Positions 3,392 to 57,634 of a stretch of DNA of 64,000 nt are shown here, one piece after another. The notes below the pieces were generated by a model that saw only the letters and a program-made list of their open reading frames with translations, ran no database searches and was not told where the DNA came from. Position 1 is the first letter of the stretch. Each line of letters starts with the position of its first letter. A program made the position numbers and the translations under genes. This DNA is from an uncultured archaeon (GTDB taxonomy: Archaea; Iainarchaeota; Iainarchaeia; Iainarchaeales; GCA-2688035): positions 91,538-155,537 of the forward strand of contig CAYHBD010000009.1 in NCBI GenBank assembly GCA_964354805.1. Direction: 5' to 3'.

Positions 3392-3534
3392 ATCCATAGT
3401 TTAAACAAAATGAAAGAAAAAAAAAAGGCAATTTCCGCAGGTGAAAAAATCAGTAGTTGGTTAAAGTGAAAGAAAAAGATGGTAATTCCGGCAGGTGAAA
3501 AAAATGTATAGTTTGGTTAAAGTGAAAGACAAGG
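3392..3534 (+). repeat. Three diverged tandem copies (~45-50 bp) of the rpoE start region. The two upstream copies encode rpoE-N-terminus-like peptides with ATG mutated to ATC.
   Basis: Units: atccatagtttaaacaaaatgaaagaaaaa / atcagtagttggttaaagtgaaagaaaaag / atgtatagtttggttaaagtgaaagacaag. Confidence 0.7.
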
Positions 3535-4145
3535 TGAGGGTTCCGCCAAAGCAGTTCACATCAAAATTGGAGAAAAGCGTTCTTGGTATGGTTCAGCAGG
3601 AATACGAAGGCCTTGTTGATGAGGACATCGGCCTTGTTGTAGCCGTGACAAATGTCAGCAATGTAGGGGAAGGCATTGTTGTGCCAGGAGACGGCAGTGC
3701 ATACTATGACACGGAAATTGAAATGCTTGTATACAAGCCGCTGATGCACGAAGTGGTTGAAGGAAACATTAGTGAAATAACAGAGTTCGGCGCATTCGTA
3801 AGAATAAGCCCGATTGAAGGATTAATCCACGTTAGCCAGATAATGGATGACTTCATAAACTATGATGCGAAAACCCCTTCATTCGTTGGAAAGAAAACAA
3901 GAAAGAAGCTGATTGTCGATGACAGCGTTATTGCAAGGATTGTAACAATTTCCTTGAAGGGAAACATCCAGAACAGCAAAATCGGCCTGACAATGAGGCA
4001 GCCTTTCCTCGGAAAAGAGGACTGGATCAAAATGGACGAAAAAACAATCGGAAAAGACATTGGAAAAGAGCGAAAGGAGAAGCACGACAAGAGACAAAAA
4101 AGCGACAGGGACGAGAAAAAAGAGCAAGCACAAAAAGGGGGATAA
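3495..4145 (+). CDS. rpoE: DNA-directed RNA polymerase subunit E' (Rpo7/RpoE1) with an S1 domain and a K-rich C-terminal tail; the track start is GTG, and ATG at 3504 is the likely true start
   Basis: MYSLVKVKDKVRVPP... N-terminus, and an S1-like domain (GAFVRISPIEGLIHVSQIMDDF) typical of Rpb7/E'. Confidence 0.85.
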   Translation: MKKMYSLVKVKDKVRVPPKQFTSKLEKSVLGMVQQEYEGLVDEDIGLVVAVTNVSNVGEGIVVPGDGSAYYDTEIEMLVYKPLMHEVVEGNISEITEFGAFVRISPIEGLIHVSQIMDDFINYDAKTPSFVGKKTRKKLIVDDSVIARIVTISLKGNIQNSKIGLTMRQPFLGKEDWIKMDEKTIGKDIGKERKEKHDKRQKSDRDEKKEQAQKGG

Positions 4146-4360
4146 CAAAAAAGGGGGACAAACAAAAGGGCCATTAAAAAGCCTTTCTTTAAAAAAGAAA
4201 GCCTTGGGAAAGAAAGAATAAACAGGGGCTAAATAAAGCTTTGAAAAAATGTGAAAAAACAGGGCAACCTAAAAGGAGAAAGCGGATAAATTGCAATTAA
4301 AAAAAGGTTTTTGAAAAAAAAGGAGTAAAAGGAAAAAGCAATTTTTAATCGTGGTTTTTT

Positions 4361-4555
4361 ATGGTGAAAGAAAAAGCTTGCAGGAACTGCAGAATGGTTG
4401 TATTGGAGGGAACAGAGTGCCCGAACTGCGGCGGCGCTGCCTTCACTACATTCTGGAGAGGCTATGTTGTCATTCTTGACCCGGAAAAAAGCGAAATCGC
4501 AAAAAAGATGGGCATAAGCAAAAAAGGAAAATTCGCCCTAAGGCTGAGCAGGTAG
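4361..4555 (+). CDS. spt4: Transcription elongation factor Spt4 (RpoE''), zinc ribbon
   Basis: CRNC...CPNCG zinc ribbon followed by ILDPEKSEIAKKMGI, as in archaeal Spt4. 64 aa, ends with TAG. Confidence 0.8.
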   Translation: MVKEKACRNCRMVVLEGTECPNCGGAAFTTFWRGYVVILDPEKSEIAKKMGISKKGKFALRLSR

Positions 4556-4622
4556 TTGGGGGATTTGGGAAACAATAGGAAACGAGACAGCAAAAAAATC
4601 ACGCTAAGGCTGAGCAGGTAAA
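4534..4622 (+). repeat. Duplicate of the spt4 3' end (last ~8 codons plus stop) 66 bp downstream
   Basis: cgccctaaggctgagcaggtag versus cacgctaaggctgagcaggtaa, with the stop position conserved (TAG/TAA). Confidence 0.65.
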
Positions 4623-4645
4623 CACAGGGCGCAAGGGGTGGGACG

Positions 4646-5955: not shown

Positions 5956-6579
5956 ATGGCAATAGTAAAACAACTGTTGGGCGGAAACGAAAACGCAATA
6001 ATTGAAAAAGCCGCAAAAATCCTCAAAGATGGCGGCGTAATAATTTTCCCTACGGAAACAAGCTATGGCCTGGCTGTTGATGCAACAAACGAGACAGCAA
6101 TAACAAAAATGGTGAAGGCAAAGGAACAGCCAGAGGAAAAAAACATTTCAATAATCGTATCCGATTTGGAGCAGGCAAAAAAATTCGGCAAAATCACGCC
6201 TGAAGCAGAAACCCTTGCAAAGAAATTCATGCCAGGGCCCCTGACGCTCGTAGTGGAAAAACAGTACAATGTGTCGAATGCGCTTGCGGAGAAAACAATT
6301 GCTTTCAGAATCTCAAGCAACAGGATTGCAACAGAGCTGTGCAAAGCGCTCGGAAACCCGATAACAGCAACCAGCGCAAACCTGCACGGAAGGCCGAACA
6401 TCTATTCAGGAAAAGAGGCAATAAAGCAGTTTGGCGGCAGGGTTCACATGATTATTGACGCTGGCGAGCTGCCAAAAATCCCGCCAAGCACAATGTATGA
6501 CACAATCAACAAAAGAGTCCTGCGCTTCGGCCCAATAACAGAACAGGAAATAAAACAGGTGCTGGAGGAGCAGAAATGA
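5956..6579 (+). CDS. sua5: L-threonylcarbamoyladenylate synthase (Sua5/YrdC/TsaC family), single YrdC domain
   Basis: FPTETSYGL motif, ...TSAN...G, ~200 aa YrdC fold. Confidence 0.8.
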   Translation: MAIVKQLLGGNENAIIEKAAKILKDGGVIIFPTETSYGLAVDATNETAITKMVKAKEQPEEKNISIIVSDLEQAKKFGKITPEAETLAKKFMPGPLTLVVEKQYNVSNALAEKTIAFRISSNRIATELCKALGNPITATSANLHGRPNIYSGKEAIKQFGGRVHMIIDAGELPKIPPSTMYDTINKRVLRFGPITEQEIKQVLEEQK

Positions 6580-6694
6580 ACCGCTTCAAGAAAATGATGT
6601 TGTATGATTTTAGGGGTTCTGATTTCTTGGCTGGCAGGCTGCAAGAGTTCAGGGGAAAGGGCTGTTTAAATATTTTTTTGGAGACTGTTTTGTT

Positions 6695-7696
6695 ATGATT
6701 GAACTCAGGTTTGGCGAAATTCTTGACCCGCTGCCTGAAAGGCTTTTGGGCAGGATTACAAAGCAAACCCTGCAAGGCATAAACAGGTATCCGTCAAACT
6801 ATGGCAAGCTTGTTTCAAAGCTCGCCAAATTGCATAAAGTGGGGGAAAAAAACATTGTTCTAGCTAACGGCGTTGACGAAGCAATTGATTTGGTTGCAAG
6901 GGCATTTGGGCAAAAGATGGCGGTTTTCACGCCAACTTATTACGAATTTTGCGCTGCAGCGCAGCGCAACGGCCTGAAATGCAGTGGAATAAATTGTTTT
7001 GACGGAAAAAACTATTTCCCGAAATACGACAGCGTGCCAGGAGACTGCACGCTTTTGTTTTTGTGCAACCCCAACAATCCTTTTGGCACACTGCAAAAAA
7101 AAGAAGTCGTTGCATTGGCGCAAAAAACAAAAGCGATGGTTGCAGTGGATGAAACTTACATTGATTTTGCCGGTGAAACATTAATCAAAGAGGCTGCGAA
7201 TTGCAAAAACCTGCTTGTCTTCAGGAGTTTTTCAAAGGGCTTTTGCCTCCCTGGCTTGAGAATAGGTTACGTTGTGGGGAACGAAAAGGCAATAAAGAAA
7301 ATAATGCAGAGAAAGCTTTGCTTCAATGTTTCTTCAGTTGCAGTTGAAGCCGCGTTGCTGGCGCTGGATGAAAAAAACCATTTCAAGAAGCTCGTGAAAT
7401 CGGTAATGAAAAGAAAAGCGGCTTTTGAGAAATTTCTGAAAGCAACGGGCTTTGACGTCAAGCAAAGCAGCATACCAAAAATTTTCATGCGCTTCCGCGC
7501 ACCGAAACAGGCAATTGCATTCCAGAGGGTTCTGGAAAAAAACGGTTTTGCAATAACAGTTGGCAACGGGATTTCAACATGCGGCCTTGACAAGAGCTTT
7601 GCACAGTTTTCGTGCGGAACTGAAAAGCAAATGAGGCAACTCAAGGAAATAATAAAAAATTCGGTGAACCCTGATGGATTGGAAAAGCTTGGCTGA
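6695..7696 (+). CDS. PLP-dependent aminotransferase class I/II (HisC/CobD-like)
   Basis: FSKGFCLPGLRIGY lysine motif, NPNNPFG, and the size and architecture of histidinol-phosphate / threonine-phosphate decarboxylase-like enzymes. Confidence 0.65.
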   Translation: MIELRFGEILDPLPERLLGRITKQTLQGINRYPSNYGKLVSKLAKLHKVGEKNIVLANGVDEAIDLVARAFGQKMAVFTPTYYEFCAAAQRNGLKCSGINCFDGKNYFPKYDSVPGDCTLLFLCNPNNPFGTLQKKEVVALAQKTKAMVAVDETYIDFAGETLIKEAANCKNLLVFRSFSKGFCLPGLRIGYVVGNEKAIKKIMQRKLCFNVSSVAVEAALLALDEKNHFKKLVKSVMKRKAAFEKFLKATGFDVKQSSIPKIFMRFRAPKQAIAFQRVLEKNGFAITVGNGISTCGLDKSFAQFSCGTEKQMRQLKEIIKNSVNPDGLEKLG

Positions 7697-8786
7697 AACA
7701 AAAGCAGGAATCCTCTGTTGCGGGCTCAAAGAAAGCAAAGCCGCTGAAGAAATCTATGCATTGCAGCACCCGACATTGCATAAAAGAACAGGAAATGCCG
7801 GGTTGCAGCTTGCTTTGCCACAAGGCTTTATTGTAAACGGAATCTACGGCGAAGCTTTTTGCAAAAAATCGCCTTATTTGGCAGAGAAACAAGGAAAACA
7901 ATTTTTTGTTTCAAGGAACGGCTCCCTGGTTTGCGCCTGCACCCCGATTCCCGCCCCAAAATGGTATCACAAAACAACAACAGACGGCAAGCCAATGTCA
8001 AGCATAATGCTGCAGGAGGGCAAAGACACTCTGATTTCGAGCGTTTGGAACAATTGCTGTTATTTTCAGAACGGAACGCAATGCAAATTCTGCATATTGG
8101 GTTATCAAAAAGAAATGCAGTGGAAAAACGAAAAACAGGTTCTTGAAACACTGCTCGCAGCGCTGGAAGAAAACCCAGCATACCAGCTTCACCTGACAGC
8201 AGGCAACAGCGCCAGCCCGGACCACGGCTTGGCAAACTACGAAAAATACGTCAAAACAATCAGGAAAGAAACCAATCTGCCGGTTACATTGGAAATAAGC
8301 CCGCCTGAAGATTTAAAACAGCTCGAAAGCATAATCGCAGCAGGAGCAAATGGCTTTTCAATAAACATTGAAATATGGGATGAAAAAAAACGCAGGGAAA
8401 TCTGCCCTGGGAAATCAAAAATAAAACGCGAAAAATATTTCCAGGCATGGCAAAAAGCAGTTGATTTGCTCGGAAAATTCAAGACAAGCTCAGTGCTAAT
8501 AGTCGGCTTGGACAGCAAGGAAAATATTGCAGAAGGCATCAGGGCAATGGCCTGCATCGGAATAAAACCAGTCTTAATCCCGTTCAGGCCGTTCGCAAAG
8601 TCTGCACTGCATTATTTGCAGCCACCGAAAGCGCGAGAACTGATGAAATTGTCGGAAATTGCAGGAAAAGAATTAAAAAAAGCGGGCGCAAAGGAAAAAG
8701 AACTAATCGGCTGCGAACACTGCGGAGCATGCAGCCTTGAAAAAGATTTTCTGGTTAACGCAAGAAAGGAAAATGCGGAAAAGTGA
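7674..8786 (+). CDS. Putative radical-SAM/TIM-barrel Fe-S protein with a non-canonical Cys triad (CX7CX2C) and a C-terminal CEHCGAC cluster
   Basis: CYFQNGTQCKFCILG near the N-terminus, alternating beta/alpha pattern, and a second Cys cluster at the C-terminus. No canonical CX3CX2C. Confidence 0.35.
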   Translation: MDWKSLAETKAGILCCGLKESKAAEEIYALQHPTLHKRTGNAGLQLALPQGFIVNGIYGEAFCKKSPYLAEKQGKQFFVSRNGSLVCACTPIPAPKWYHKTTTDGKPMSSIMLQEGKDTLISSVWNNCCYFQNGTQCKFCILGYQKEMQWKNEKQVLETLLAALEENPAYQLHLTAGNSASPDHGLANYEKYVKTIRKETNLPVTLEISPPEDLKQLESIIAAGANGFSINIEIWDEKKRREICPGKSKIKREKYFQAWQKAVDLLGKFKTSSVLIVGLDSKENIAEGIRAMACIGIKPVLIPFRPFAKSALHYLQPPKARELMKLSEIAGKELKKAGAKEKELIGCEHCGACSLEKDFLVNARKENAEK

Positions 8787-8802
8787 TGAAAAATGAACTG
8801 CC

Positions 8803-9441
8803 CTAAAGCTTAAGAGCGCTTCTAAGGTGGCTTAAGTCCAATACAAAAACCATTAAAGTATTCTTTTTTGTGTCAATGACATATTCCCAACTCTCAGTGA
8901 TATCGATTCCGTCTTCTTCAGAAGCACGTTTTGTCATGACATCAACATAATCCAAAGCACTTTTTATTTCTTGGCTTCTTTCAAGACCCCTTTTTTTAAA
9001 AAAAACGAAGACGTTGTTTTTATTCATTGTTTGCAAGTCCCCAAACTTTCGCAAGTCCGTAAGTGCAAGATGTTTTTCTCCGTTAATTTCAACAACCCTT
9101 ATTGTTGGTGGCACAGGATACCCTTTTGCCCTAAGATTTTGAAACATCTTAAATTCTCTTTCAGCAATGCTGCTTTGAGTTTCACCGCAAAACTCTTTCA
9201 GGTTATATCTTTTTACAACAAGCCTTATTTTTTTATTTCCTTTACAGACTATAAAATTATAAGCCCTGCCATGCCGCCCCGCGGCGGGCATTTTCTCGGT
9301 TACTTGCAAAAGCCCAGGGCCTGTTATACCAAACAGCGCATTAACTTTCTTAATCTTTTGAACCCGGTGAACTGTATCAGGATGGAAATCCTTTTTTCCA
9401 CCCCTTAAAAAGTTTTTTTGGTGCCCGGATTTGTGCTTCAT
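8803..9441 (-). CDS. Hypothetical protein in the AT-rich island, with weak RIO/Kdo-kinase-like N-lobe similarity
   Basis: AEREFKMFQNLRAKGYPVPP resembles the RIO/Bud32/Kdo kinase helix motif, but there is no clear HGDL catalytic loop. Local GC is clearly below the window average. Confidence 0.3.
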   Translation of the reverse strand: MKHKSGHQKNFLRGGKKDFHPDTVHRVQKIKKVNALFGITGPGLLQVTEKMPAAGRHGRAYNFIVCKGNKKIRLVVKRYNLKEFCGETQSSIAEREFKMFQNLRAKGYPVPPTIRVVEINGEKHLALTDLRKFGDLQTMNKNNVFVFFKKRGLERSQEIKSALDYVDVMTKRASEEDGIDITESWEYVIDTKKNTLMVFVLDLSHLRSALKL

Positions 9442-9542
9442 AATAATTAATGTTATTAGAAAGTAATTAAATTGTTTAATGGTAGAAGAATATTACAACA
9501 TTGACTTAAGAAGGCAAATAAAGTTGTTTGTGGTTAACGCTT

Positions 9543-9878
9543 TTAGGCGAGCGCTTTTACGGCTTGTTCCTCAAACCCAATTTTTTCCATTGATTTTTTC
9601 ATCAACTCGTTGTCCAATTCAATCAATTGTTTTACCACAGGGTTTTTGTTATTGAGCTTGAACATGCTTGCCTTGCCGACTTTTCTGGTGTAAGTTACTG
9701 TATTGGCTTTTTCCAACTTGCCCCAGAAGGTTTCCAATGTATTCCAGGAAACATTGGCATTCCTGCAAATGTCTTTCTTTGAGTAGTCAAATATGTCGTT
9801 CTCTATCAAGAAATCCAAGACCCTAATTATCGGGGAATCGCCAAAGAACAGCACAAACAAAGACTTGTCTTCAGCCAT
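9543..9878 (-). CDS. Small winged-helix DNA-binding protein (putative transcriptional regulator), divergent from the next gene
   Basis: 111 aa with a predicted wHTH (RVLDFLIENDIFDYSKKDICRNANVSWNTLETF). It lies in the AT-rich island, with an AT-rich divergent promoter region at 9879..10077. Confidence 0.45.
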   Translation of the reverse strand: MAEDKSLFVLFFGDSPIIRVLDFLIENDIFDYSKKDICRNANVSWNTLETFWGKLEKANTVTYTRKVGKASMFKLNNKNPVVKQLIELDNELMKKSMEKIGFEEQAVKALA

Positions 9879-10077
9879 ACAAAGAAATCCCTTTTATAAT
9901 TGATATAACTACTTGTAGGTAAATAATTTAAATAGTAGAAGGCCAAGTTTGAGTGCAAAAGATATTTCGTTTTTTGACGGTAAGAAAGAAGCATTTTAAA
10001 AGTATCGTATGGGGGTATTTAAATAAGGAAAAAACGAAAAGAAAATATTAAATAGGAGAACTTACTTATAAAGGTAG

Positions 10078-10335
10078 ATGCACATGGCAGGAACTTCTTT
10101 TTTGACCTTCAAGAAAAATGACGTTGAACAAATACTGACAACGTTAGATATCGTCACAGAAAAAAAGGGCGTGAAAGAATTTATTTTAGATGAGAAAAAA
10201 GAGATTGCAAAGTGCTATGTCTGCGATGAAAAGCTTACTCCAGAAAACATAGGGAACATAATCAAAGGCTCAAAAATTCTCCTTTGTGACAATCCTTCCT
10301 GCTTTAGCGGATACCTTGTTGAGAAAAAACTTTAG
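10078..10335 (+). CDS. Hypothetical small protein with a CxxC...C...C putative zinc-binding motif
   Basis: CYVCDEK...LLCDNPSC. AT-rich island. Confidence 0.3.
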   Translation: MHMAGTSFLTFKKNDVEQILTTLDIVTEKKGVKEFILDEKKEIAKCYVCDEKLTPENIGNIIKGSKILLCDNPSCFSGYLVEKKL

Positions 10336-10341
10336 ACACTT

Positions 10342-11142
10342 ATGGCTGAATTTATTAACAAGGTAAAAAAACGATTTGGGGGAAAGGTAAAAATAGGCAT
10401 AAATCCCTCATTCGAAACTGAAAAGGCTGAAATCCATATTGGGCACAACTACAACATTACGATAAATCAGTTCGGAGACAAAACAGACCCAAAAAAAATC
10501 TTGGAAAGCTTTGAAAAAGAGCAAATACTTACAAGAGACGACCTACTTCTCCCAGACATAGAGCAAACAGAAACGGTTATCACAAGAAGTCAACTCCTGC
10601 TGTTCTACCGCCCCCATCTAAGCAAAAAAGATTTGGCTGCCCTCAATGACAGTCTTAGCATAATAGCTTTGGAAGATAAAGAACTGAATGAGGAAGCAAA
10701 AAAAAGACACGAGCAATTGTATAAAGCGTATAAAAAACGGGGTCTCGTGATATATAACTTTGCAAGAAGTGGGCTCTTTGAAACCGAAATAAAAGTAACC
10801 CTTGAAAGGATAATCAAGCAACATCTCGGAAAAGAAGTTAAAACAATAGATGAATTCAATAACTATTTTGAAGGACTAATTCAAAGACACCCCGCAAACA
10901 TTTATGTTAGCAAATACTGGGCTGAACATAGAGTATTGGATGAGATCCAAGAAAGATTGGAATTGATATTACGAGATAAAACAAGCTTAATCAAAATATA
11001 TTGCAGGGAACCGCAATTGGGGATGGTCAAAACTGTGTGTAACCAAGTAGAAAGTTTATTTACTATAACTCATGATGAGTATAGGTTTGGAAAAAATAAA
11101 GCATACACATTTTATCTGGCCCTTAAAGAAGATGCTGATTAA
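10342..11142 (+). CDS. Hypothetical protein (266 aa), no recognisable domain
   Basis: Long clean ORF in the AT-rich island. Its stop is immediately followed (ATG at 11143) by kae1. Confidence 0.35.
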   Translation: MAEFINKVKKRFGGKVKIGINPSFETEKAEIHIGHNYNITINQFGDKTDPKKILESFEKEQILTRDDLLLPDIEQTETVITRSQLLLFYRPHLSKKDLAALNDSLSIIALEDKELNEEAKKRHEQLYKAYKKRGLVIYNFARSGLFETEIKVTLERIIKQHLGKEVKTIDEFNNYFEGLIQRHPANIYVSKYWAEHRVLDEIQERLELILRDKTSLIKIYCREPQLGMVKTVCNQVESLFTITHDEYRFGKNKAYTFYLALKEDAD

Positions 11143-12168
11143 ATGCAGAGCAAAGACGGCATTACTTGCCTTGGCATTGAGAGCACCGCACTCTAGAGGG
11201 TTCTAGGCGGATATACTTTCGGTGCCGGAATAGTTAGCGACAGCTGCGGCAAATGCAATATTCTCGCAAACGAAAAGCACAGCGTTTCAACAGCACAGGG
11301 CGGCCTGATTCCCCGCGAATTGGCAGCGCACCATTTCAAGCACGCGAAGCAGGTGATAGAGGCAGCGCTGCAAAAAGCCAACCTGAAAATTGCAGATGTT
11401 GATTTGATTGCATTCAGCCAGGGGCCTGGCATTGGGCAGGCATTGAGGGTTGGGGCTGTTGCAGCAAGAACGCTTGCCCTCGCGCACAACAAGCCGTTGC
11501 TTGGCGTGAACCACTGCGTTGCACACGTTGAAATAGGAAAGGCACTTACTGGGGCAAAAAACCCGATTGTAGTTTATGTAAGCGGTGCAAACACGCAGAT
11601 AATCGGCTATGAGGAAGGAAAGTATCGTGTTTATGGTGAAACACTTGACATTGGAGTTGGAAATCTGCTGGATGCGTTTGGCAGGGCGCTTGGCTTGGGT
11701 TTCCCGGCAGGGCCTGTTCTGGACAAAATGTATTTTGAAAAAAAGAAATATGTTCCACTGCCTTACACTGTAAAGGGAATGGATTTGGCTTTCTCAGGGC
11801 TGCAGACAGCGGCAGAGCAAAAAATTGCAAATGAGAGAAAAGAGGACTTGGCTTACAGCCTGCTGCACAATGCCTTTGCAATGGTTACAGAGGTAAGCGA
11901 GAGGGCCCTTGCACACACTGAGAAGAACGAATTGCTGCTCACTGGCGGAGTTGCTGCAAGCAAGGCGCTGAGGGAAATGCTGCAGAAAATGTGCGATGCG
12001 CGTTCATGCAAGTTTTTTGTCCCGCCTTTTGATGTGTGCGTGGACCAGGGAACAATGATTGCATGGCTTGGATTGATAATGCACAAAGCAGGCAACAGGA
12101 TGAAAGTGGAAAACAGCGTTGTCAACCCAAAGCAGAGGGCTGACCAGATTGAAGTGAACTGGGTTTAA
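11143..12168 (+). CDS. kae1: tRNA N6-threonylcarbamoyladenosine synthase Kae1/TsaD. The N-terminal region carries a 21-nt insert with an in-frame TAG (11194..11196). The six-frame track starts at a TTG at 11320, which would delete the essential N-terminal motif.
   Basis: The frame is continuous from ATG 11143. CLGIESTA..[L*RVLGG]..YTFGAGIV flanks the insert, and HCVAHVEIG, the metal-binding His pair and a C-terminal GGVAAN-like region are all Kae1-typical. The gene is not fused to bud32. Confidence 0.8.
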
Positions 12169-12345: not shown

Positions 12346-13272
12346 ATGAAGCAAGAAAGAAAGCCGCGCTGGAAAATGACTGATGCCGAGAAGAGCAGAG
12401 CCTGGAAAACCAAGGATAACAGTTCCACTCAATTTTACAGTGGCAGGGCTGCTATGCGCACTGAAACGAAATTGATTTTTTTGGTTGCATTGATTGCAGC
12501 TTTTGCGCTTGGCTTGTTTACTGCCTCTTATTTGCAGCCTTCTTCAATTCCAAGCGTTATTCTGAAGCAATTGCCTGCTGCTGAAAAGTTTGAGAGCAGC
12601 ATTAACATTGTTGCCGCAAGGACACAGGGCGAAGTGGGTGTTGTAAGCCAGGCGACAGCTGAAATCATTGAAGGAAAGGGCAGGGTGCTGTTTTCCTTGA
12701 ACCCGTTTGTTGAGCCTGACACCCAGCAGAGCGCTGAAACAGCTGTTGCTGTTGCACAGCAGTTCACCGGGAAGAGCCTTGCAGACAGGGATGTAATTTA
12801 CGGAATTGAGAACATTGATGCGCAATTGGTTGGAGGACCAAGCGCTGGCGCAGCGCTTACTGTTGCAACAATTGCCGCGCTGGAGGGAAAAAAGGTAAGG
12901 GAAGATGTAGCAATCACTGGAACAATTCAGGCAGACGGCTCAATCGGCCAGATTGGCGGAGTGATTGAAAAAGCAAGCGCATGCGCTGAAACAGGCTTGC
13001 GCCTGTTTTTGGTCCCAAAGGGGCAAATGAATTTAACCTATTATGAGCAGCAGGTGCAGGAGGAAAAGCACGGCTTTGTCACAATCCAGAGAATCAGGTA
13101 TATTCCAAAAACACTGAATCTGAGTGACTATGCAAAAGAGCAGGGCTGGAGTTTGGAAGTAAAGGAAGTAAGCAACATTCAAGAGGCAGTAAATTACCTG
13201 ATTGAACAAAAGGGGCACGTAAAGAAATGCAGCGAAAAGACTGGCAGTGAATTACCTGATTGCCCAAATTAA
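12346..13272 (+). CDS. Membrane-anchored Lon-like S16 peptidase domain protein, with no AAA+ module
   Basis: One N-terminal TM, then GGPSAGAALTVATIAAL (catalytic Ser) and the downstream Lys of the Lon proteolytic domain. Confidence 0.7.
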   Translation: MKQERKPRWKMTDAEKSRAWKTKDNSSTQFYSGRAAMRTETKLIFLVALIAAFALGLFTASYLQPSSIPSVILKQLPAAEKFESSINIVAARTQGEVGVVSQATAEIIEGKGRVLFSLNPFVEPDTQQSAETAVAVAQQFTGKSLADRDVIYGIENIDAQLVGGPSAGAALTVATIAALEGKKVREDVAITGTIQADGSIGQIGGVIEKASACAETGLRLFLVPKGQMNLTYYEQQVQEEKHGFVTIQRIRYIPKTLNLSDYAKEQGWSLEVKEVSNIQEAVNYLIEQKGHVKKCSEKTGSELPDCPN

Positions 13273-44353: not shown

Positions 44354-44378
44354 TAGCATCGCAGCATTTCAATCAATT

Positions 44379-48108: not shown

Positions 48109-48147
48109 AGATTTTTATTCGAAAAAGACATACTCTAATTGATTAAA
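48109..48147 (+). promoter_or_regulatory. Conserved family upstream element, copy E (runs into the TTG start)
   Basis: agatttttattcgaaaaagacatactctaattgattaaa. Confidence 0.5.
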
Positions 48148-50310
48148 TTGAAATCCTGCGCTAAAATTCTCGCAATCGCATTACTTGCAATGCTTTTGGC
48201 TGGAACAGCGGCGGCTGCCAACTGCATAGGCAACAAGTCTGGGAATCTTATAGTTAACGGAGACCTGGAGGCAGTCACCGCAGGCATTCCTGACTGCTGG
48301 TATAAAGAGGGCTGGGAAAAAGATGGGGTGGCGCTGCCAGGAAGGGATTTGAATTGGGTTAAGGACCCTATTACAGGCGGAGACCATGGAATGGTTTTGA
48401 AAACGCAGAACACAAGCAATGGATCAGGCACAGGGCTTGCATGGCAAAATCCAGTTGCCCCTGAGCTTGTAGAGCCAAACACCTGGTATGAGCTTTCCTT
48501 CTCTTATGCCACTGAAGGCATTGAACCACTGCTTGACACAGACGGCAACATGCTACAGGACAGCGTTTGGATTGGGGCAGGCGCTATAATATGGGACGGA
48601 AACTGGAATAAGATAGATAAAGTGGATTCGTTAATTTGGGCTCAGGACCTTGAATTGGACAAGTGGGATGACAGCGCATGGGTTTACAGGACATACAAAA
48701 AAACAGGGCTTAAGCCATGGAAAGACGTAAAAAAATATTTTAAGACCCCTGCTGTGGTTGGACATATATACATATTAACATACAATTATCCAAAAGGAAC
48801 AGCATATTTTGATAATTTCTCACTCAGGAAAATAGGTTACAATCCTAATGATGTTCCATTTAAAAAATCCGGGACACTGCGCTTCCTCCAGTTTAAGGAT
48901 GAGGATTTTTTCCCAATATTCCTGCACTCGTTTCCACAAAGAGGAGGGACAGATATTGGATTAAATGAGGTTAAAGAAAACGGATTCAACACAACAAACA
49001 GCTGGAACAAAACAAAAATCGAGGAGTTGGATCTGGCAAGCGCAATAGACCTGCCTGAAATCCACAAAGGCTCTCCTGATAATCTCTCATGGTACAATGA
49101 CCCTGGCCCTGGGAATTCAATTGCATACACTGGAAAGGCAGAAATTAAAACCAGAGTTTCCGAATGGAAAGATTTTGACAACCTTTTATTTTTTATAACC
49201 AGGAATGAAATTGAGTGCCACCCTGTCAGAGACGAGTCATTTGTGCCTGATTTAGAAACATACAAAAAAATCAGCGAATATGTCAGAGGCAATGGGGCAA
49301 AAATATTCTACGGGTTCTGCGGAAGCTATTACAATACCCCGGAAGCATATACTGGAAGCTATGATGACTTTGTAAATTATTACCATCCGCTTGCGGATAT
49401 TATAAGCCATACCGCAAACCTGCCGCCGGCATACCCAAGCGCATACAACGAACCTCAATTAGACAAGGTCGGCATATGGACAAGGACAGACCTTTCCAGG
49501 AGCCCCGAAAAATATTTTATTGCAAGAGGCTTCAGCAGAATGGACTGGGCAAACTGGGACAGGGCAAGGGAAGCAGATGGGAGTGTTCGCAGGTACGACA
49601 TATATGTACCGTTCAACCTGCAAAGGTTCCTTGTGTGGACCCAGATAATAAACGGCGCCACAGGGGCTGATTTTCTGTATACAAGCGCGATAAACCTAAC
49701 TGACAAAGACTATGCCAAATACTATGCCCACAGCTGGAAGCAGATAACCGCAATATCAAAAGAGCTCTCGGAATTATACCCTGTTCTTGTTGAACCCCAG
49801 TTCCTTGACGAGTGGCAGGTTTCCGATCCAAGAGTGGAGATAATGATGAAAAAGCATGATGAAAAGATTTACCTTTTTGCAGCAAGCACGCATTATGAGG
49901 ATTTGCTCAAGGAAACAATAACACTTGACAGCAAATACAACATAGCAAAAATAACGGCACTGAACGAAGTAATAAACGGGGATGTGGACAATCCCCCAAC
50001 TGACAGAAGCATTGAGCTAGCTTCACCAAACAGCTTTGTTGACGACTTTGTTGGAGACGACGGCTCGCACGCATCTGCAGCAAGCCCTGGATATGCTGTG
50101 CACATTTACGAGATTGAATTAAGCGCCTGCGGCAATGGCACATGCGATTCAGGCGAAACTGTCTCATGCCCGCAGGATTGCCAAGAATGCGTTGACACGC
50201 CGACATTAATGAACCAGTACATTCCCCAGTGGAAAAGAGGAGAAATAAGCATGCTAACACTAATGCAGAAAATAAGGCAACGGAACACAGGGGAAGGATG
50301 CCCGCAATAA
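48139..50310 (+). CDS. Secreted protein, family member E: CBM4/9-like N-terminal domain, a glycoside-hydrolase-like core, one Cys mini-module and the conserved tail
   Basis: Signal MIKLKSCAKILAIALLAMLL. NGDLEAVTAGIPDCWYKEGW (CBM-like). C-terminus CGNGTCDSGETVSCPQDCQECVDTPTLMNQYIPQWKRGEISMLTLMQKIRQRNTGEGCPQ. Confidence 0.7.
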   Translation: MIKLKSCAKILAIALLAMLLAGTAAAANCIGNKSGNLIVNGDLEAVTAGIPDCWYKEGWEKDGVALPGRDLNWVKDPITGGDHGMVLKTQNTSNGSGTGLAWQNPVAPELVEPNTWYELSFSYATEGIEPLLDTDGNMLQDSVWIGAGAIIWDGNWNKIDKVDSLIWAQDLELDKWDDSAWVYRTYKKTGLKPWKDVKKYFKTPAVVGHIYILTYNYPKGTAYFDNFSLRKIGYNPNDVPFKKSGTLRFLQFKDEDFFPIFLHSFPQRGGTDIGLNEVKENGFNTTNSWNKTKIEELDLASAIDLPEIHKGSPDNLSWYNDPGPGNSIAYTGKAEIKTRVSEWKDFDNLLFFITRNEIECHPVRDESFVPDLETYKKISEYVRGNGAKIFYGFCGSYYNTPEAYTGSYDDFVNYYHPLADIISHTANLPPAYPSAYNEPQLDKVGIWTRTDLSRSPEKYFIARGFSRMDWANWDRAREADGSVRRYDIYVPFNLQRFLVWTQIINGATGADFLYTSAINLTDKDYAKYYAHSWKQITAISKELSELYPVLVEPQFLDEWQVSDPRVEIMMKKHDEKIYLFAASTHYEDLLKETITLDSKYNIAKITALNEVINGDVDNPPTDRSIELASPNSFVDDFVGDDGSHASAASPGYAVHIYEIELSACGNGTCDSGETVSCPQDCQECVDTPTLMNQYIPQWKRGEISMLTLMQKIRQRNTGEGCPQ

Positions 50311-50517
50311 AAAAAGAAATGGCTGCAAGGGAGAAAAGAAACAGCCCCCCACATGGGAAGGGGGGAGTGGCGGCAATTCCTGCAAAAGGGGCAATTGGGC
50401 TTTTGGGAAAAAAAGCGGTGTATTTAAATTTTTTGTCCCAGGTATGTTTTATTAGGTATTTTTGGCAAGTCAAGTGGATCTTAATTTAGCTTTCCATTTG
50501 GCGCTGATTTTAGGTGA

Positions 50518-52428: not shown

Positions 52429-55400
52429 GTGATAATTATGCCGATAAAAATTGACATTGATGCAAGTAGTGCGGTTAAGAGCTACTATGATTCAGTTGCA
52501 GCTGAAGTGGAAAAACAGCTTTCCGTTGCAGCAGAGGCAAAGTCAAGGGGCTTTGATGTAAGCACTGCAATCGAAACAAAGCCTGTGGCAGACCTTGCCG
52601 ACAGGACTGAAACAATTATCGGGCCGCCGGGAATTGCAAAAAGGTACAGGGAAGTGTTTGAGGAAAAGAATGGAAACAGGATGGATGCAATATTCCAAAT
52701 ATTCAAGGAAATAATCGACCAGCAGTGGTGCAAGATTGTGGACGACCAGAAAAGGATTGAACAGGCAATCAAAACATGCCTTGTTTTGAATACCGAGGGC
52801 GTTGTTGTTGCACCGCTTGACGGGGTGCCTGAAATAAAAATAAGCAGAAACCCTGATGGAAGCAAATACATCGATGTTTACTACGCAGGCCCGATAAGGG
52901 CAGCAGGCGGAACATCAGCAGTATTGCCGCTTATTTTAGGGGATTACGCAAAGCAGTTGCTCGGTCTGGACAGGTTCAAGCCGACAGAGGATGAAGTGGA
53001 GAGATATGTTGAAGAATGCCAGATTTATGAAGAGATTGTAAGCAGGCAGTACAGGCTGAGCGAGGCTGAAGTGAAAAAAATAATTAGGGGCTGCACTGTG
53101 TGCATCAACGGCGAACCAACGGAAGAAAGGGAAGTGGCAGTGCACAGGAACCTGCCGAGAATTGAAAGCAACAGGATAAGGGGCGGAATGTGCCTTGTGA
53201 TAAGCGAAGGCGTTGCACTAAAAGCGCCGAAGATTCTGCAGTTTTCGAAACAGCTTGGATTGGACTGGAGCTGGCTTGAAGGAATAATAAAGGTGGGAAA
53301 AAGCGAAAGCGGCGAGAGAAAAATTGAGCCGAACGAAAAGTTTTTGGAGGGCACAGCAGCTGGAAGGCCGATCTTCTGCTATCCTGAGCGAATCGGGGGC
53401 TTCAGGCTGCGCTACGGCAAAGCAAGAAACACCGGGATAATGGGGAAAGGGATTCACCCTGCAACAATGTTTCTGCTGGATGAATTTGTTGCTGTTGCAA
53501 CACAGCTGAAAGTGGAAAGGCCTGGAAAAGCAGCAGGAATTTTCCCGGTTGATTCTATTGAAGGGCCGATAGTAAAGCTGCTGAACGGCTACGTTGTGAA
53601 AGTAAACAGCCTGCAGCAGGCAATTGAATTGAAACAGAAAATTGCCCAGATTCTTTTCTTGGGTGACATTCTTGTAAGCGTTGGCGATTTTCGGCACAGC
53701 GCCCATCCATTGGTGCCAGCCGGCTATTGTAGTGAATGGTGGGCAAAGGAACTGCAAAGGCAGCTGCGAAAAATCCCTGTGGAAAAAGAGCAGTTCGAGG
53801 AAATAATTGCAAAGCCGGAAAATGTAAGCATTGAACAGGCAATTGAATTGAGCGAAAAATTCAATGCGCCGCTGCACCCGAACGCGCTGTATTACTATGA
53901 CGCTTTGAACAAAAATGAATTAATTCAATTAATTAGTTTCTTGCAGAAAGCTGAAACAACCAAAGAAGGCAAAAAAATTTCCGCGATTGAATTGCCAAAA
54001 CAAGGAGCGGAAAAACAACTGCTTGAAAAAATTGGTTTGCCACACAAGGTTGAGGGCGACAAAATAATAATTGACGCAGATAATGCCCTTGCTTTAACCA
54101 AAACACTTGCCTTGCAGAAAAGCAGCCCTGAAATTGCAGGCATAATAGAAAAATCCGCTGATGTAATTGACGCATTGAACAATTTAAGCGGCCTTGTGAT
54201 TAGAGACCTTTGCGGAACATTTGTCGGAAGCAGGATGGGCAGGCCTGAGGCAAGCAGGCCGAGGAAAATGATCGGAAACCCAAACGTGCTTTTCCCAATA
54301 GGCTTGCACGGTGGCAACATCAGGAGCGTCAACAAGGCAATGGCAAGTGAAACAGAGGGCAGCCCAGGCAAAATACTGGTTGAAATAGCTTTATTCAAAT
54401 GCCCGGAATGCAGGCAGGTAAGGGAGCAGCCATTCTGCCCTGCATGCGGCAAAAGAGCTGAAAAAATAAACCAGTGCCCGAACTGCGGCAGCATTTCTGC
54501 AACGGAAAAATGCGCAAAATGCGGCAAGATGACATCGCCTTTCTCAAAAAGGGAGATTGACCTAGGCCTTACAATGCAACAGGCAGCACAGAACCTTGGC
54601 ATAAAAGTGCCTGAACTTGTAAAAGGAGTAAAAGGGACAATAAACAAGGACAGAGTAACCGAACCCCTGGAAAAAGGACTGCTGAGAGCAAAGCACGACA
54701 TGCATGTTTTCAGGGACGCGACAATAAGGTATGAGCTGATAAATGCGCCCTTAACGCACTTCACTGCAGCAGAGATTGGAATAAGCATTGCCAAGCTGCG
54801 CGAATTAGGCTACAGTAAGGACAGTGAAGGAAAGGAATTGGAAAAGAACGGGCAATTGGTCGAATTAATGCCCCAGGACATAATAATCCACGAGCAGGCA
54901 GGCGAATTCTTTGCAAAAGAAACAAAATTCATAGACGAACTGCTGCAGCGCTTCTACAAAATACAGCCATACTTCAACGTAAACAAAAAAGAAGATTTGG
55001 TGGGGCAACTGCTGCTTGGGCTAGCACCCCACACAAGCGCGGCAATAGTCGGCAGGGTGATTGGCTTCACAAAAGCAAGATGCTGCTTTGCCCACCCATT
55101 CTTCCACCAGACAAAGAGGCGAAACATAGACGGAGACCAGGATTCACTGCTTCTGCTTATGGATGCCCTGCTGAATTTCTCGCATTCGTATCTGCCGAGC
55201 AGCAGGGGAGGCAGAATGGATGCACCGCTCGTTTTCACCATTGCCTTGAAACCAACAGAAATAGATGATGAGTGCTATCAAATGGAGAAATGCAGCAGCT
55301 ATCCGCTTGAATTGTATGAAATGGCCCAGAAAATAATGCCGGCTGATGTAAGCGGCATTGAAAGAGTGAAAGACAGCCTTGGCAAGCAAAGCCAGTATGA

Positions 55401-55875
55401 CGGATTCGAGTGCACGCATTCAACAAGCCAGTTTGATGCCGGTCCTACAACAAGCAGATATGTTACGCTTGGCACAATGGAGGAAAAGCTGAGGGCGCAG
55501 GCAAAACTGCAGTTCAAAATCGCGGCATGCGAAGGAAAAGACGCCATGGAAAGAGTGATGGTATCGCACCTTTTGCCTGACATAATCGGAAACACCAGGG
55601 CATTCAGCAGGCAGCAGTTTCGCTGCACTGCATGCAACGCAAAAATGAGGAGGATTCCGCTTGACGGAAAATGCATTCAGTGCGGAAAACCCAGCGTCAT
55701 TCTGACAATAGCGCAGGGCAGCGTGCGAAAATACCTGCTGATAGCGAAAGCGCTTGCGGAAGAATACCAGCTAAGCGATTACCTGAAGCAGAGGCTTGAA
55801 TTAGCCGGCAGGGAAATAGACAGCATATTCCAAAACGAGCAAAAAGAGCAAAAAAAGCTGGCGGAATTTGTTTAA
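52429..55875 (+). CDS. dp2: DNA polymerase II (PolD) large subunit DP2, no intein
   Basis: 1148 aa. CPECRQ...CPACG and CPNCG...CAKCG zinc modules, and the conserved DP2 catalytic core with C-terminal Cys clusters (CTACNA...CIQCG). Confidence 0.9.
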   Translation: MIIMPIKIDIDASSAVKSYYDSVAAEVEKQLSVAAEAKSRGFDVSTAIETKPVADLADRTETIIGPPGIAKRYREVFEEKNGNRMDAIFQIFKEIIDQQWCKIVDDQKRIEQAIKTCLVLNTEGVVVAPLDGVPEIKISRNPDGSKYIDVYYAGPIRAAGGTSAVLPLILGDYAKQLLGLDRFKPTEDEVERYVEECQIYEEIVSRQYRLSEAEVKKIIRGCTVCINGEPTEEREVAVHRNLPRIESNRIRGGMCLVISEGVALKAPKILQFSKQLGLDWSWLEGIIKVGKSESGERKIEPNEKFLEGTAAGRPIFCYPERIGGFRLRYGKARNTGIMGKGIHPATMFLLDEFVAVATQLKVERPGKAAGIFPVDSIEGPIVKLLNGYVVKVNSLQQAIELKQKIAQILFLGDILVSVGDFRHSAHPLVPAGYCSEWWAKELQRQLRKIPVEKEQFEEIIAKPENVSIEQAIELSEKFNAPLHPNALYYYDALNKNELIQLISFLQKAETTKEGKKISAIELPKQGAEKQLLEKIGLPHKVEGDKIIIDADNALALTKTLALQKSSPEIAGIIEKSADVIDALNNLSGLVIRDLCGTFVGSRMGRPEASRPRKMIGNPNVLFPIGLHGGNIRSVNKAMASETEGSPGKILVEIALFKCPECRQVREQPFCPACGKRAEKINQCPNCGSISATEKCAKCGKMTSPFSKREIDLGLTMQQAAQNLGIKVPELVKGVKGTINKDRVTEPLEKGLLRAKHDMHVFRDATIRYELINAPLTHFTAAEIGISIAKLRELGYSKDSEGKELEKNGQLVELMPQDIIIHEQAGEFFAKETKFIDELLQRFYKIQPYFNVNKKEDLVGQLLLGLAPHTSAAIVGRVIGFTKARCCFAHPFFHQTKRRNIDGDQDSLLLLMDALLNFSHSYLPSSRGGRMDAPLVFTIALKPTEIDDECYQMEKCSSYPLELYEMAQKIMPADVSGIERVKDSLGKQSQYDGFECTHSTSQFDAGPTTSRYVTLGTMEEKLRAQAKLQFKIAACEGKDAMERVMVSHLLPDIIGNTRAFSRQQFRCTACNAKMRRIPLDGKCIQCGKPSVILTIAQGSVRKYLLIAKALAEEYQLSDYLKQRLELAGREIDSIFQNEQKEQKKLAEFV

Positions 55876-55955
55876 GTGGAAGGGCAGACCCGAAACAATG
55901 TTTTTTAAAATAAACCTGAAAATCTTATTTATATAAACTGCTAAAGGGAAAAAGT

Positions 55956-56237
55956 ATGGCTGCGAATAAACCTGCATTTCACGGGATTACAAAATCAAGT
56001 ATGCACAATGTTGGTGGCGGCAGGCGCAGAGGAGGCACCAGAGGAGTCAGCGTTTACAAAAACGTGGTCATACTAAAGCCAGGGCAGAGAATAGTTTACA
56101 GATCAAGCTGCCCGCATAGCATTGTGGACGCAAAAGGGAGAACAATTAGACTTTTCAAGGAGTGGGCATTAACAGCAAGGAAAAAGATAAGCAGGCAAGG
56201 GGGTAATAAACCCACGTCGATGAGTGAAGAGGTATAA
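55956..56237 (+). CDS. Hypothetical small basic protein
   Basis: 93 aa, Arg/Gly-rich N-terminus. No confident family assignment. Confidence 0.3.
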   Translation: MAANKPAFHGITKSSMHNVGGGRRRGGTRGVSVYKNVVILKPGQRIVYRSSCPHSIVDAKGRTIRLFKEWALTARKKISRQGGNKPTSMSEEV

Positions 56238-56250
56238 AAGGGCCAAAAAA

Positions 56251-56362
56251 TTATTCTCCCATCAATTCCTTTTCCAAAACAGCCCTGAGTTTTTTTGTGC
56301 CGAAGGTTTTATTCTCCCATCAGCTCTTTTTCCAGCACAGCTCTTAATTTTTTCGCATCGAA
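56251..56362 (-). repeat. Duplicate of the orc1/cdc6 3' end (17 codons plus stop) immediately downstream of the gene
   Basis: Gene FDAKKLRAVLEKELMGE-stop versus copy FGTKKLRAVLEKELMGE-stop. 12 nt differences in 54 nt, 8 of them synonymous. Similarity ends exactly at the stop codons. Confidence 0.8.
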
Positions 56363-57634
56363 CCCGAGCTTTATGAGCGTGGTTGCTCCCCTTACTCCTT
56401 TTCCGCTTGCTGTTGTCAAAAGCAGCCCGTATGTGTCCAATTCATTGATGTATTCCCTGAACCATCTGCTGCTTACAACGCTTTCGTTCAGGGAGAGAGC
56501 AATGCGCTTGTATTCGTTGTAGATGTCACCGCTGCAGAAAACGCCTTCCTCGCTTTGGCCTGAACCTGTTATTCTCTGCATTCCTTTTCCCTGTGTTGTG
56601 AGCAGGGAAATCGCGTACAACACCAGCTGCTGCTGCTTTGGCAGGGTTGCAACCATGTTAAGGATGATTTCCTGTTCAACGCTTGTCTTTGCCTTTCTTA
56701 CCATGACATCAGTTACCTCGCTGAATTGCATTTTGTCCGCCTCTTCTCCGGCTCTAAGAAGCAGCATTATTGCTGTTCTTGCATCCCCTGTTTCCTGCGC
56801 TGCGATTGCGGATGCGAGGTTGATTGCGCTGCTGCTTACAGCGCCGGGCCTGAATGCCTTTGCAATCCTTTCCTGTAGGATTGCCTTGAGCTCTTCAGCG
56901 TTGTAAGGCGGGAAAACCATTTCTTTTTCCAAGAGTGCGCTTTTTGTTCTTGCATCAAGGCGCTCTTTGAAGAAAAGGTTGTTGCTTATTCCAAGGATGC
57001 TGATGCTACCGAATGGCAGCTCGTCGTTTGCCCTTGTAAGCGAGTAAACCAGTTCGTCCAAATCCTTGGCTTTGTCTATTTCATCCAGCACAATGATGAG
57101 GTTCTTTCCTTTTTCAGATGCCGCCTGCAGCAGTTTTTCGAACACAAAGGAAGCGCTGTATCCAATGAAGTCCTCTTTTGGATGGAATTTCTGCATTGCC
57201 TTGAGCAGAACCTTATATTTGCTGTTGTGGTTTCTGCAGTTAACGAAAGCGAAGTCAACTGGCGAATTGCTTTGCTCAATGAATTGCTGCAATTGCTGCA
57301 ATACGTGCTTTACAGTGACTGTTTTTCCTGTTCCGACTTTTCCGTAAATGAAAACATTGTCTGCTTTTTTCCCCTGCAGAGTTGCAGCAAGCGCTGTGCT
57401 GATTTGCTCGATCTGCTTTTGCCTGAATGGCAGGGCATCAGGGACATAGTGCGGGGAAATAATGTTTTTATCCAGAAAAACAGTGTGCTTTGTGATAAAC
57501 TGCTGGAAAATGTTCTGCTGCGGAAATGTTTCGTCCTGTAGTGAAACAATTTTTTTCTGCTGCAGCAATGTTTCGTTCTGCGCTGAAACAATTTTCTGCC
57601 CCAGTCCCACCAATGTCTGCTGTGCCACACCCAT
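56309..57634 (-). CDS. cdc6: Orc1/Cdc6 replication initiator (AAA+ and winged helix); the N-terminus contains an in-frame tandem 14-aa repeat and the true start is possibly internal
   Basis: FIYGKVGTGKTVTV Walker A, IVLDEID Walker B, a sensor region, and a C-terminal wHTH. An AT-rich candidate origin lies immediately upstream (57635..57980). Confidence 0.85.
   Translation of the reverse strand: MGVAQQTLVGLGQKIVSAQNETLLQQKKIVSLQDETFPQQNIFQQFITKHTVFLDKNIISPHYVPDALPFRQKQIEQISTALAATLQGKKADNVFIYGKVGTGKTVTVKHVLQQLQQFIEQSNSPVDFAFVNCRNHNSKYKVLLKAMQKFHPKEDFIGYSASFVFEKLLQAASEKGKNLIIVLDEIDKAKDLDELVYSLTRANDELPFGSISILGISNNLFFKERLDARTKSALLEKEMVFPPYNAEELKAILQERIAKAFRPGAVSSSAINLASAIAAQETGDARTAIMLLLRAGEEADKMQFSEVTDVMVRKAKTSVEQEIILNMVATLPKQQQLVLYAISLLTTQGKGMQRITGSGQSEEGVFCSGDIYNEYKRIALSLNESVVSSRWFREYINELDTYGLLLTTASGKGVRGATTLIKLGFDAKKLRAVLEKELMGE

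Follow-up and report, generated by a model that had tools for sequence, protein, structure and literature searches.

Short extra copies of gene ends were found in a 64-kb stretch of DNA from an uncultured archaeon (contig CAYHBD010000009.1, positions 91,538 to 155,537 of the forward strand), hereafter called the window. The best protein matches of the window belong to Candidatus Diapherotrites or Iainarchaeum, a lineage of DPANN archaea, which form a superphylum of small-celled archaea. The window has a G+C content of 43.8% with 32% of A, and about 90% of the genome is coding. The gene names given by a first-pass annotation of the sequence were confirmed with Pfam, by which SecD/SecF and DnaK/DnaJ were also recognised (Table 1). 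The extra copies of gene ends are 20-58 nt long. These terminal duplications are real, well beyond chance and mostly located at gene ends, and the signal at the termini is strong and restricted to the genus-level clade of the window. In the following, c1 designates the functional gene end and c2, or pseudo-end, the extra copy.

The relatives compared with the window were L001 (GCA_053536015.1), which covers the orc1 region; lineage S, represented by a 69-kb JGI metagenome contig (L082, L163, L167) and by independent Logan and ENA assemblies (L164-L166, L168, L169, L176); lineage T (L173-L175); L170 and L171 (GCA_030692205.1); and L083. A valS fragment from GCA_030692205.1 (L172) stops short of the valS 3′ end. 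Within positions 1380-1410 of this fragment, an in-frame TAA replaces the GAA of the window (…FYIE*VKTRV…), which could be the mark of a pseudogene or an assembly error. A metagenome scan with the protein encoded at 10342-11142 returned no relative, and a scan with Kae1 returned a single close relative on a 3.8-kb contig.

Table 1. Genes and duplicated segments considered in this analysis, with window coordinates and occurrence among the relatives.
Feature	Position	Strand	Units	Period or size	Basis or remark	Present	Absent
Rpo7/RpoE gene	3504-4145				Pfam		
Spt4 gene	4361-4555				Pfam		
Kae1 gene	11143-12168				Pfam		
Lon_C-like gene	12346-13272				Pfam		
Helix-turn-helix (HTH) regulator gene	16818-17258	minus			Pfam		
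ValS gene	26790-29174				Pfam		
NOG1-type GTPase gene	41087-42160				Pfam		
PolD DP2 gene	52438-55875				named by alignment to PolC_DP2 genes of relatives		
Orc1/Cdc6 gene	56309-57634	minus			Pfam		
rpoE 5′ array	3384-3552	plus	pseudo-5′-ends 3384-3443 and 3444-3497, then true 5′ end from 3498	55-57 nt			
rpoE 3′ micro-repeat	4132-4167	plus	2.2 copies	16 nt	spans the stop codon (…CAAAAAGGGGGATAA / CAAAAAAGGGGGACAA)		
spt4 3′ copy	4528-4621	plus	4528-4555 repeated at 4594-4621	66 nt	copy of L083 without stop	window, L083	
Lon-like 3′ repeat	13185-13282	plus	13185-13210 and 13243-13268	58 nt			
Regulator 3′ copy	16765-16873	minus	functional 16822-16873, pseudo-end 16769-16820	53 nt	single copy ending …KVEE in distant relatives	window, S, T (seven relative contigs)	
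valS 3′ copy	29128-29224	plus	29128-29174 repeated at 29178-29224	50 nt		window only	S
NOG1 5′ copy	41045-41099	plus	41045-41058 and 41086-41099	41 nt		window	S
orc1/cdc6 3′ copy	56251-56353	minus	56309-56353 repeated at 56251-56295		differently spaced in L170 and L171	window, L001, L170, L171	S (four assemblies)
orc1 N-terminal repeat	57513-57595	minus	two units, in frame	42 nt	21-nt sub-unit		
Intergenic array upstream of secD	39645-39747		2.4 units	42 nt	no coding end involved		
Intergenic array between secF and NOG1	40926-40979		2.8 units	20 nt	AAAAAACCCTTTTTT-type		
polD 3′ copy						S and L171 only	window
grpE 3′ copy						S	window
kae1 3′ copy						L083	window
Copy at convergent overlapping gene pair	pair at ~58.7 kb			47-48 nt		S (L163), L001	window

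Organisation of the duplicated gene ends

At the 3′ end of valS, the stop codon TGA (29172-29174) is followed by a pseudo-end of 47 nt that closes with a second TGA (29222-29224); the two units abut at the stop. At orc1, the TAA (56309-56311) is directly followed by a 58-nt pseudo-end (56251-56308) which is closed by its own TAA (56251-56253); a T-run and then lineage-specific DNA are found beyond it. In the regulator gene two 53-nt units abut; unit 1 lacks a stop codon, and the functional TGA (16818-16820) is provided by the first bases of unit 2 (ATGAAG/GTGAAG). The regulator pseudo-end closes with …GIKIEE and its own TAA (16765-16767). In the window, in S and in T it forms an intact 18-codon open reading frame (ORF), the GTG of which overlaps the TGA of the gene (GTGA). 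The order at spt4 is …LRLSR with TAG (4553-4555), a spacer of 39 nt, and a 27-nt pseudo-end reading …(I)TLRLSR with TAA.

Two genes are preceded by copies of their 5′ end. Each unit of the rpoE array combines an A-run with a start-like triplet and with about 45 nt that look like coding sequence. The units start 6-9 nt upstream of the ATG; the true ATG is located at 3504, and ATC stands at the start position in both upstream pseudo-copies. At NOG1, whose true start is the ATG at 41087, the motif AATGAGGCTGCAAT has a second occurrence 41 nt further upstream. An upstream ORF (uORF) of 14 codons begins with this second occurrence, and its TGA overlaps the true ATG (ATGA).

Further repeats do not sit on a start or stop codon. 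In the Lon-like gene, copy 1 is in frame, and copy 2 is out of frame yet still within the ORF, which gives the protein a 20-aa tail that none of the aligned homologues has. Read in the other frame, copy 2 presents a homologue-like end (…AVNYLIAQINAT) with a stop at 13280-13282. As the 42-nt intergenic array upstream of secD shows, tandem duplications in this size class are not confined to coding ends. The AAAAAACCCTTTTTT-type array between secF and NOG1 could be a terminator acting in both directions or belong to a promoter region; three copies of its unit are also present in S (L163 20120-20235), where the array is split by a 39-nt insertion. The copy number of the repeat in the Orc1 N-terminus differs among strains, with proteins of 434, 441 and 448 aa (P0241-P0244). 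Distant Orc1 homologues (about 400-410 aa) are devoid of the N-terminal extension.

Five terminus duplications (rpoE 5′; spt4, regulator, valS and orc1 3′) had been listed in the first-pass annotation, and all of them were recovered on reading the sequence. The in-frame 42-bp tandem repeat reported in the orc1 N-terminus is likewise real. Three terminal copies were added to this list, namely those at the NOG1 5′ end, the rpoE 3′ end (16 nt) and the Lon-like 3′ end. The statement that all duplications break exactly at a start or stop codon is correct insofar as each of the four 3′ copies ends with its own stop and the units of valS and orc1 abut there; the regulator, spt4 and rpoE depart from it by the borrowed TGA, the spacer and the early unit starts described above. 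That such duplications are tolerated only when they straddle a start or stop codon is contradicted by the Lon-like gene and by both intergenic arrays.

An insert in kae1 had also been regarded as an in-gene counterpart of the duplications. This insert of 21 nt (CTCTAGAGGGTTCTAGGCGGA, ~11191-11211) is in frame and stands in place of the conserved His of GIESTAHTFG. No recognisable copy of the flanking sequence was found in it. Nor is it codon-neutral, because the His is lost and a TAG is introduced in frame (MQSKDGITCLGIESTAL*RVLGGYTFG…); L083 has no insert. With this TAG, kae1 may be a pseudogene, or the insert may be due to a sequencing error or something unexplained. In the same region, a 4.7-kb block (6568-11247) encoding an aminotransferase, a radical SAM protein and four unannotated ORFs splits sua5 and kae1, which are adjacent in L083.

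Enrichment of local copies at gene ends

As BLAST self-comparison missed most of the short repeats, an ungapped offset scan covering 12-300 nt was written. It delivered 14 local direct repeats in the window and none in six simulated sequences (second-order Markov). All repeat periods lie between 41 and 66 nt, with the exception of repeat-protein genes and of the micro-repeats of 16 and 20 nt.

For the gene termini, the last 66 nt of each called gene were aligned to the 200 nt downstream, and alignments with a score of at least 30 were kept. In a first scan, a downstream copy of the 3′ end was detected at 4 of the 59 window genes, compared to 7 of 601 genes in other Iainarchaeota loci and 1 of 894 in other archaea; mismatched pairs of gene and flank gave a null of 0.24%. 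In a second scan the relatives were included and low-complexity matches were removed. Copies were then obtained at 12 of the 111 gene 3′ ends of the clade; outside it, among other Iainarchaeota and the remaining archaea, there were 10 in 2459 (Fisher p = 1e-11). The alignment reached the stop codon in 10 of the 12 clade matches and in only one of the ten found elsewhere. Since several clade matches correspond to one locus in different genomes, they represent about 9-10 independent events.

A comparison of gene termini with related genomes had been proposed in the first-pass annotation, and the second scan provides it for the sequence reached, with a clear excess in the clade. The genome-wide signature postulated there has been established only for the 64-kb window and about 60 kb of relatives, which is not a whole genome. 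Literature searches yielded no account of such a pattern of gene-end copies in archaea.

Occurrence in related lineages and borders of homology

The occurrence of the copies varies from lineage to lineage (Table 1). Seven contigs that belong to two other lineages and were assembled independently also contain the regulator duplication. At orc1 the offset of the copy is 58 nt in the window, as against 57 nt in L001. In S, the valS stop leads straight into DNA that in the window lies behind copy 2, and polD displays three ends in an array with 49-50 nt spacing. The duplication at the convergent gene pair alters the C-terminus of one of the two genes in S. For this copy and for that of spt4, the spacer is not clearly repeated. 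No single tree accommodates the patterns of presence, and the copies must therefore be gained, lost or transferred frequently.

Strain variants of a gene end might have been set in series when contigs were joined during metagenome assembly. The window indeed stems from a metagenome-assembled genome (MAG), its copies resemble different strain alleles and four of them are confirmed by no second assembly. However, the structures recur with lineage-specific substitutions across JGI, Logan, ENA MEGAHIT and NCBI MAG assemblies, which stem from different samples and pipelines, and no assembler mechanism yields diverged tandem copies of 41-66 nt that end at stop codons. An assembly artefact is thus extremely improbable.

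At orc1, polD and the regulator, the homology between lineages ends just past the pseudo-end, and different DNA lies beyond it in each lineage. This is not so at valS, the convergent pair or NOG1. The interval between orc1 and polD contains a different small island in the window, in S and in L001, and none in L170 and L171. In L170, the orc1 pseudo-end is located 1 nt from the polD stop. The order in L171 is orc1, a 7-nt spacer, the orc1 pseudo-end, a single T, the polD pseudo-end, a 12-nt spacer and polD. The units tend to begin at A-runs, which are common in this A-rich genome.

Other differences were observed around orc1 and polD. The non-coding DNA upstream of orc1 (window 57635-58360; L001 1560-2332) is probably the replication origin. 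The window and L001 share about 94% identity in it, although they differ by 35% at the 4-fold sites of orc1, and an additional 64 nt are present there in L001. The polD (DP2) gene of L001 (5582-10456) contains an intein, with matches to Intein_splicing and LAGLIDADG, and codes for 1624 aa; in the window and in S polD is intein-free and codes for 1145 aa.

A direct repeat of 45-60 nt covering a gene 3′ end has the typical size of the attachment (att) sites of archaeal integrative elements. The pseudo-ends resemble such sites in size and three of them border variable islands, so that they could be seen as footprints of a mobile element or a site-specific integrase, either as att sites or as long target-site duplications left after loss of the element. 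Yet the copies are adjacent with no insert between them, no third copy of any unit was found elsewhere in the 64-kb window, and no integrase or transposase domain was detected with Pfam in the island ORFs tested. Site-specific excision would moreover leave one copy and not two, and the many unrelated target genes have no sequence in common. An origin as such footprints is very improbable, and the integrase-like targeting of gene ends put forward in the first-pass annotation was abandoned.

Allele-like differences between the copies

Eight independent pairs of c1 and c2 were compared codon by codon. The differing codons comprise 30 synonymous and 13 non-synonymous changes, and 30 of the 49 nucleotide differences are located at third positions (p = 6e-5 against 1/3). 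If point changes struck these sequences at random, 19% of them would be synonymous. With c1 limited to synonymous changes and c2 free to vary, about 32-46% would be predicted; as 70% was observed, this model was rejected (p = 4e-7 to 1e-3). Judged by these substitutions, the copies differ as alleles do, unlike a gene and its decaying relic.

The last 11 codons of polD exist as two allele types in the clade. Type one is functional in the window and in L001, and type two in S, L170 and L171; type one is also the pseudo-end in S and L171. Over 33 nt, the pseudo-end of S shows 2 differences from the functional ends in the window and in L001, versus 7 from the functional end of its own gene. When the functional ends of S and the window are aligned, 60 identical nt are followed by 7 differences within 19 nt, mostly with 3-nt spacing. 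Localised hypermutation of the repeat was considered and dismissed, since in S polD it is the unconstrained copy that is unchanged. In the window, the orc1 pseudo-end has a 20-nt block in common with the functional allele of L171.

In the regulator, c1 and the first 36 nt of c2 (93 nt together) are invariant in three lineages with differences of 6.5-8.9% between their gene bodies. Among the same lineages, the divergence amounts to 35-50% over the last 20 nt of c2. These nucleotides encode K/Q/R, I/V/V and E/E/G, followed by the stops TAA, TAG and TGA, respectively, and this variation matches the pattern at the functional C-termini of the regulator family. At the differing sites, A occurs in c1 as often as in c2. 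A diversity-generating retroelement was discarded because the differences in the regulator are neither adenine-specific nor one-directional; no reverse transcriptase was encountered near the sites in Pfam scans of some window genes, which were not a search aimed at this enzyme.

The exception is valS, where both copies share the states derived in the window and the extra copy has non-synonymous changes. This looks like an in situ duplicate with neutral decay. As for orc1, the copy is 91% conserved between the window and L001, against a divergence of 35% at 4-fold sites, which could suggest purifying selection. This was rejected, as ordinary intergenic DNA in these genomes is 90-94% conserved versus 65% identity at 4-fold sites, and as the apparently copy-specific synonymous changes also occur in functional alleles of other lineages.

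Codon-like substitutions raise the question whether the second copies are functional, being translated as readthrough or frameshift extensions or as coupled mini-ORFs, or being kept as homology landing pads or spacers that shield the ends of essential genes during the exchange of variable islands. The 18-codon GTGA ORF of the regulator, open in three lineages with three different stops, would fit such a role, as would the NOG1 uORF ending in ATGA at the true start, the spt4 copy in frame behind TAG, and the orc1 and polD copies flanking the variable island. On the other hand, the frames are inconsistent (+1, -1, 0), the orc1 copy has no start codon, and the copies are freely missing in sister lineages. 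In L170 and L171 the orc1 copy is frameshifted and has non-synonymous changes, the polD copy of L171 contains an internal TGA, and the spt4 copy of L083 has lost its stop. A function of the second copies is quite improbable. Programmed readthrough or frameshifting in particular was rejected on account of the offsets of 66 nt (frame 0), 58 nt (+1), and 53 and 50 nt (-1), and of the frameshifted or stop-interrupted copies of L170 and L171.

Origin of the pseudo-ends

The favoured explanation, with a probability of about 0.55, is that the pseudo-ends are scars of slipped or illegitimate joining, produced sometimes in situ and probably often during exchange between diverged lineages, and kept where they are harmless. 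Diverged lineages of the clade would exchange DNA, and the edge of an exchanged tract would fall at a gene boundary adjoining heterologous DNA, with homology too short to complete the crossover. Because homology cannot resolve the border there, it would be closed about 50 nt out of register. The outcome would be an intact gene followed by a short end fragment, often of the other allelic type, with its own stop retained. The joining would resemble homology-facilitated illegitimate recombination or slipped priming. Slippage in situ would operate as well, at valS, in the rpoE array, in the orc1 N-terminal repeat and in the intergenic arrays. The copies, which are presumably neutral, could later be lost by deletion, be moved from one lineage to another or remodelled by homologous recombination, as proposed for the regulator, or decay. 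Variants breaking essential genes would be purged, so that the survivors would be met at gene termini or in spacers; in a genome with such a high coding density, gene boundaries and spacers are the only harmless places. The second copies would persist because the working gene stays intact.

Two options had been envisaged in the first-pass annotation: frequent micro-duplication or illegitimate recombination with purging, or a specific process at gene boundaries such as allelic exchange. The enrichment at termini, the differences in presence among lineages, the foreign polD allele and the mostly synonymous differences agree with illegitimate recombination or allelic exchange plus purging. Purging everywhere except at codon-neutral positions is too strict, as it fails at the Lon-like gene.

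Pure micro-duplication in situ by replication slippage, at an unusually high rate in this clade and followed by selection and decay, would require no exchange between lineages. It accounts for head-to-tail copies with regular periods, for the triple arrays at the rpoE 5′ end and at S polD, and for the contiguous units at valS (50 nt), the regulator (53 nt), orc1 (58 nt) and the rpoE 5′ end (55-57 nt). Copy numbers that differ among close strains, including those of the orc1 N-terminal repeat, intergenic arrays in the same size class, and the window-specific derived states and non-synonymous changes of the valS copies point in the same direction. Slippage does not explain, however, why the polD pseudo-end of S almost coincides with a foreign functional allele and not with its own gene end, why synonymous changes are in excess overall, or why the regulator combines an invariant c1 with a variable pseudo-end resembling C-termini. 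Nor does a spacer behind copy 1 clearly recur behind copy 2 (7-nt spacer at orc1 in L170; spt4). Slippage with neutral decay would be expected to leave copies most akin to their own genome and diverging regardless of codons, a pattern seen only at valS. As the sole process it is possible but unlikely.

Several points weigh against the explanation by illegitimate joining. It leaves unexplained the narrow size class of 41-66 nt and the regular arrays of 49-57 nt, and this size range together with the arrays (rpoE and S polD, three units each) fits replication slippage or unequal exchange better; the size class may reflect how the machinery of recombination or replication works in archaea. Microhomology at the junctions is not demonstrable beyond the A-runs, and no junction was caught mid-event. 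The allele assignment of the orc1 pseudo-end is mosaic and not clean. The conservation of intergenic DNA is so unusual that the slow decay of the pseudo-ends says little by itself. The valS, NOG1, rpoE 5′ and Lon-like copies, found in the window only, have no support from an independent assembly, and the whole sample amounts to the 64-kb window and about 60 kb from relatives, with genes called by a home-made ORF caller.

A more elaborate scheme can be conceived. The pseudo-ends might be products, and perhaps functioning parts, of a clade-specific mechanism with a constant step of about 50 nt, by which strains would swap variable islands at the 3′ ends of their essential genes. The spare end would be sacrificed as homology arm or landing pad, and the essential gene itself would never be cut. 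The GTGA-coupled 18-codon ORF and the ATGA-coupled NOG1 uORF would then act as micro-proteins or translational couplers. This scheme is improbable.

If scars of joining are the correct explanation, the pseudo-ends would be physical markers of recombination between diverged DPANN lineages, among which gene flow is hard to demonstrate, and could allow exchange events to be dated and mapped with no more than sequence data. They would reveal a route by which a very compact genome gains spacer DNA between packed genes, as in the orc1-polD interval of L170, and a source of new C-terminal tails, as in the Lon-like gene and in one gene of the convergent pair in S. For annotation, short ORF-like fragments located after stops would have to be treated as relics and not as genes, and a synonymous-looking divergence of a non-coding copy would not need to imply translation.

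Other differences between the window and its relatives

The gene content of the window and of S differs at several places besides the orc1-polD island. The window region 21146-26758 encodes a beta-helix/Laminin_G protein of 1188 aa and a PIN-domain protein; its counterpart in S (L082 4135-9229) contains four unannotated ORFs with Cys-rich repeats of 90-96 nt. Five paralogous genes of the window (30584-32374 and 42146-50316), taken to encode putative secreted proteins, have in common a conserved upstream/5′ segment of 58-104 nt and an 86-nt 3′ end. They contain 60-nt Cys-rich internal repeats, and two of the spacers between paralogues are copies with 85-87% identity.

Comparison with known systems

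Diversity-generating retroelements are common in DPANN archaea and consist of a 3′ variable repeat with a template repeat downstream. The gene-end copies are similar in that a second copy of the gene 3′ end lies just downstream; they differ by shorter repeats and by conserved housekeeping targets. The att duplications generated by integrative elements at the 3′ ends of genes or tRNA genes likewise consist of a repeat of ~45-60 nt over a 3′ end that leaves the gene intact. In that case, however, the copies flank an element with its integrase, whereas they are adjacent here. Slippage and variable number tandem repeats are matched by the head-to-tail copies, the variation of copy number among strains, the intergenic arrays of the same period and the decay at valS. 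They are not matched by pseudo-ends that resemble a foreign functional allele, nor by the concentration of the differences at synonymous sites.

Displacement of C-termini has been described for Rhs, contact-dependent inhibition (CDI) and type VI secretion system (T6SS) effector loci, where it leaves orphaned 3′ regions (Jackson et al., 2009; Kirchberger et al., 2017; PMC5361080). As depicted there, the old end is left downstream as a non-functional remnant and repeated events can produce arrays, which is reminiscent of the three polD ends in S. Those loci are presented as toxin/immunity modules of kilobase scale under diversifying selection, while the remnants in the window clade measure 20-58 nt, belong to the allele family of housekeeping genes, bring no cargo and confer no evident benefit.

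Homology-facilitated illegitimate recombination, also called "homologous recombination at the border", is reported for Acinetobacter, Streptococcus pneumoniae and Pseudomonas stutzeri in the summary given by PMC5361080. In the account given there, one side of the incoming fragment is anchored by homology and the other is closed illegitimately, with small insertions or duplications at the border. The likeness lies in the three sites that adjoin lineage-specific DNA, in pseudo-ends of foreign allelic type, and in an intact gene followed by a displaced end of the other allele (polD in S and L171, the regulator, and in part orc1). The bacterial process was characterised experimentally in naturally transformable species, is rare and has variable junction distances. 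Its counterpart in the window clade concerns uncultured DPANN archaea, in which an offset of 41-66 nt at many housekeeping genes is known from sequence alone. Taken with these precedents, the gene-end copies are a variant of known processes and not a new kind of system.

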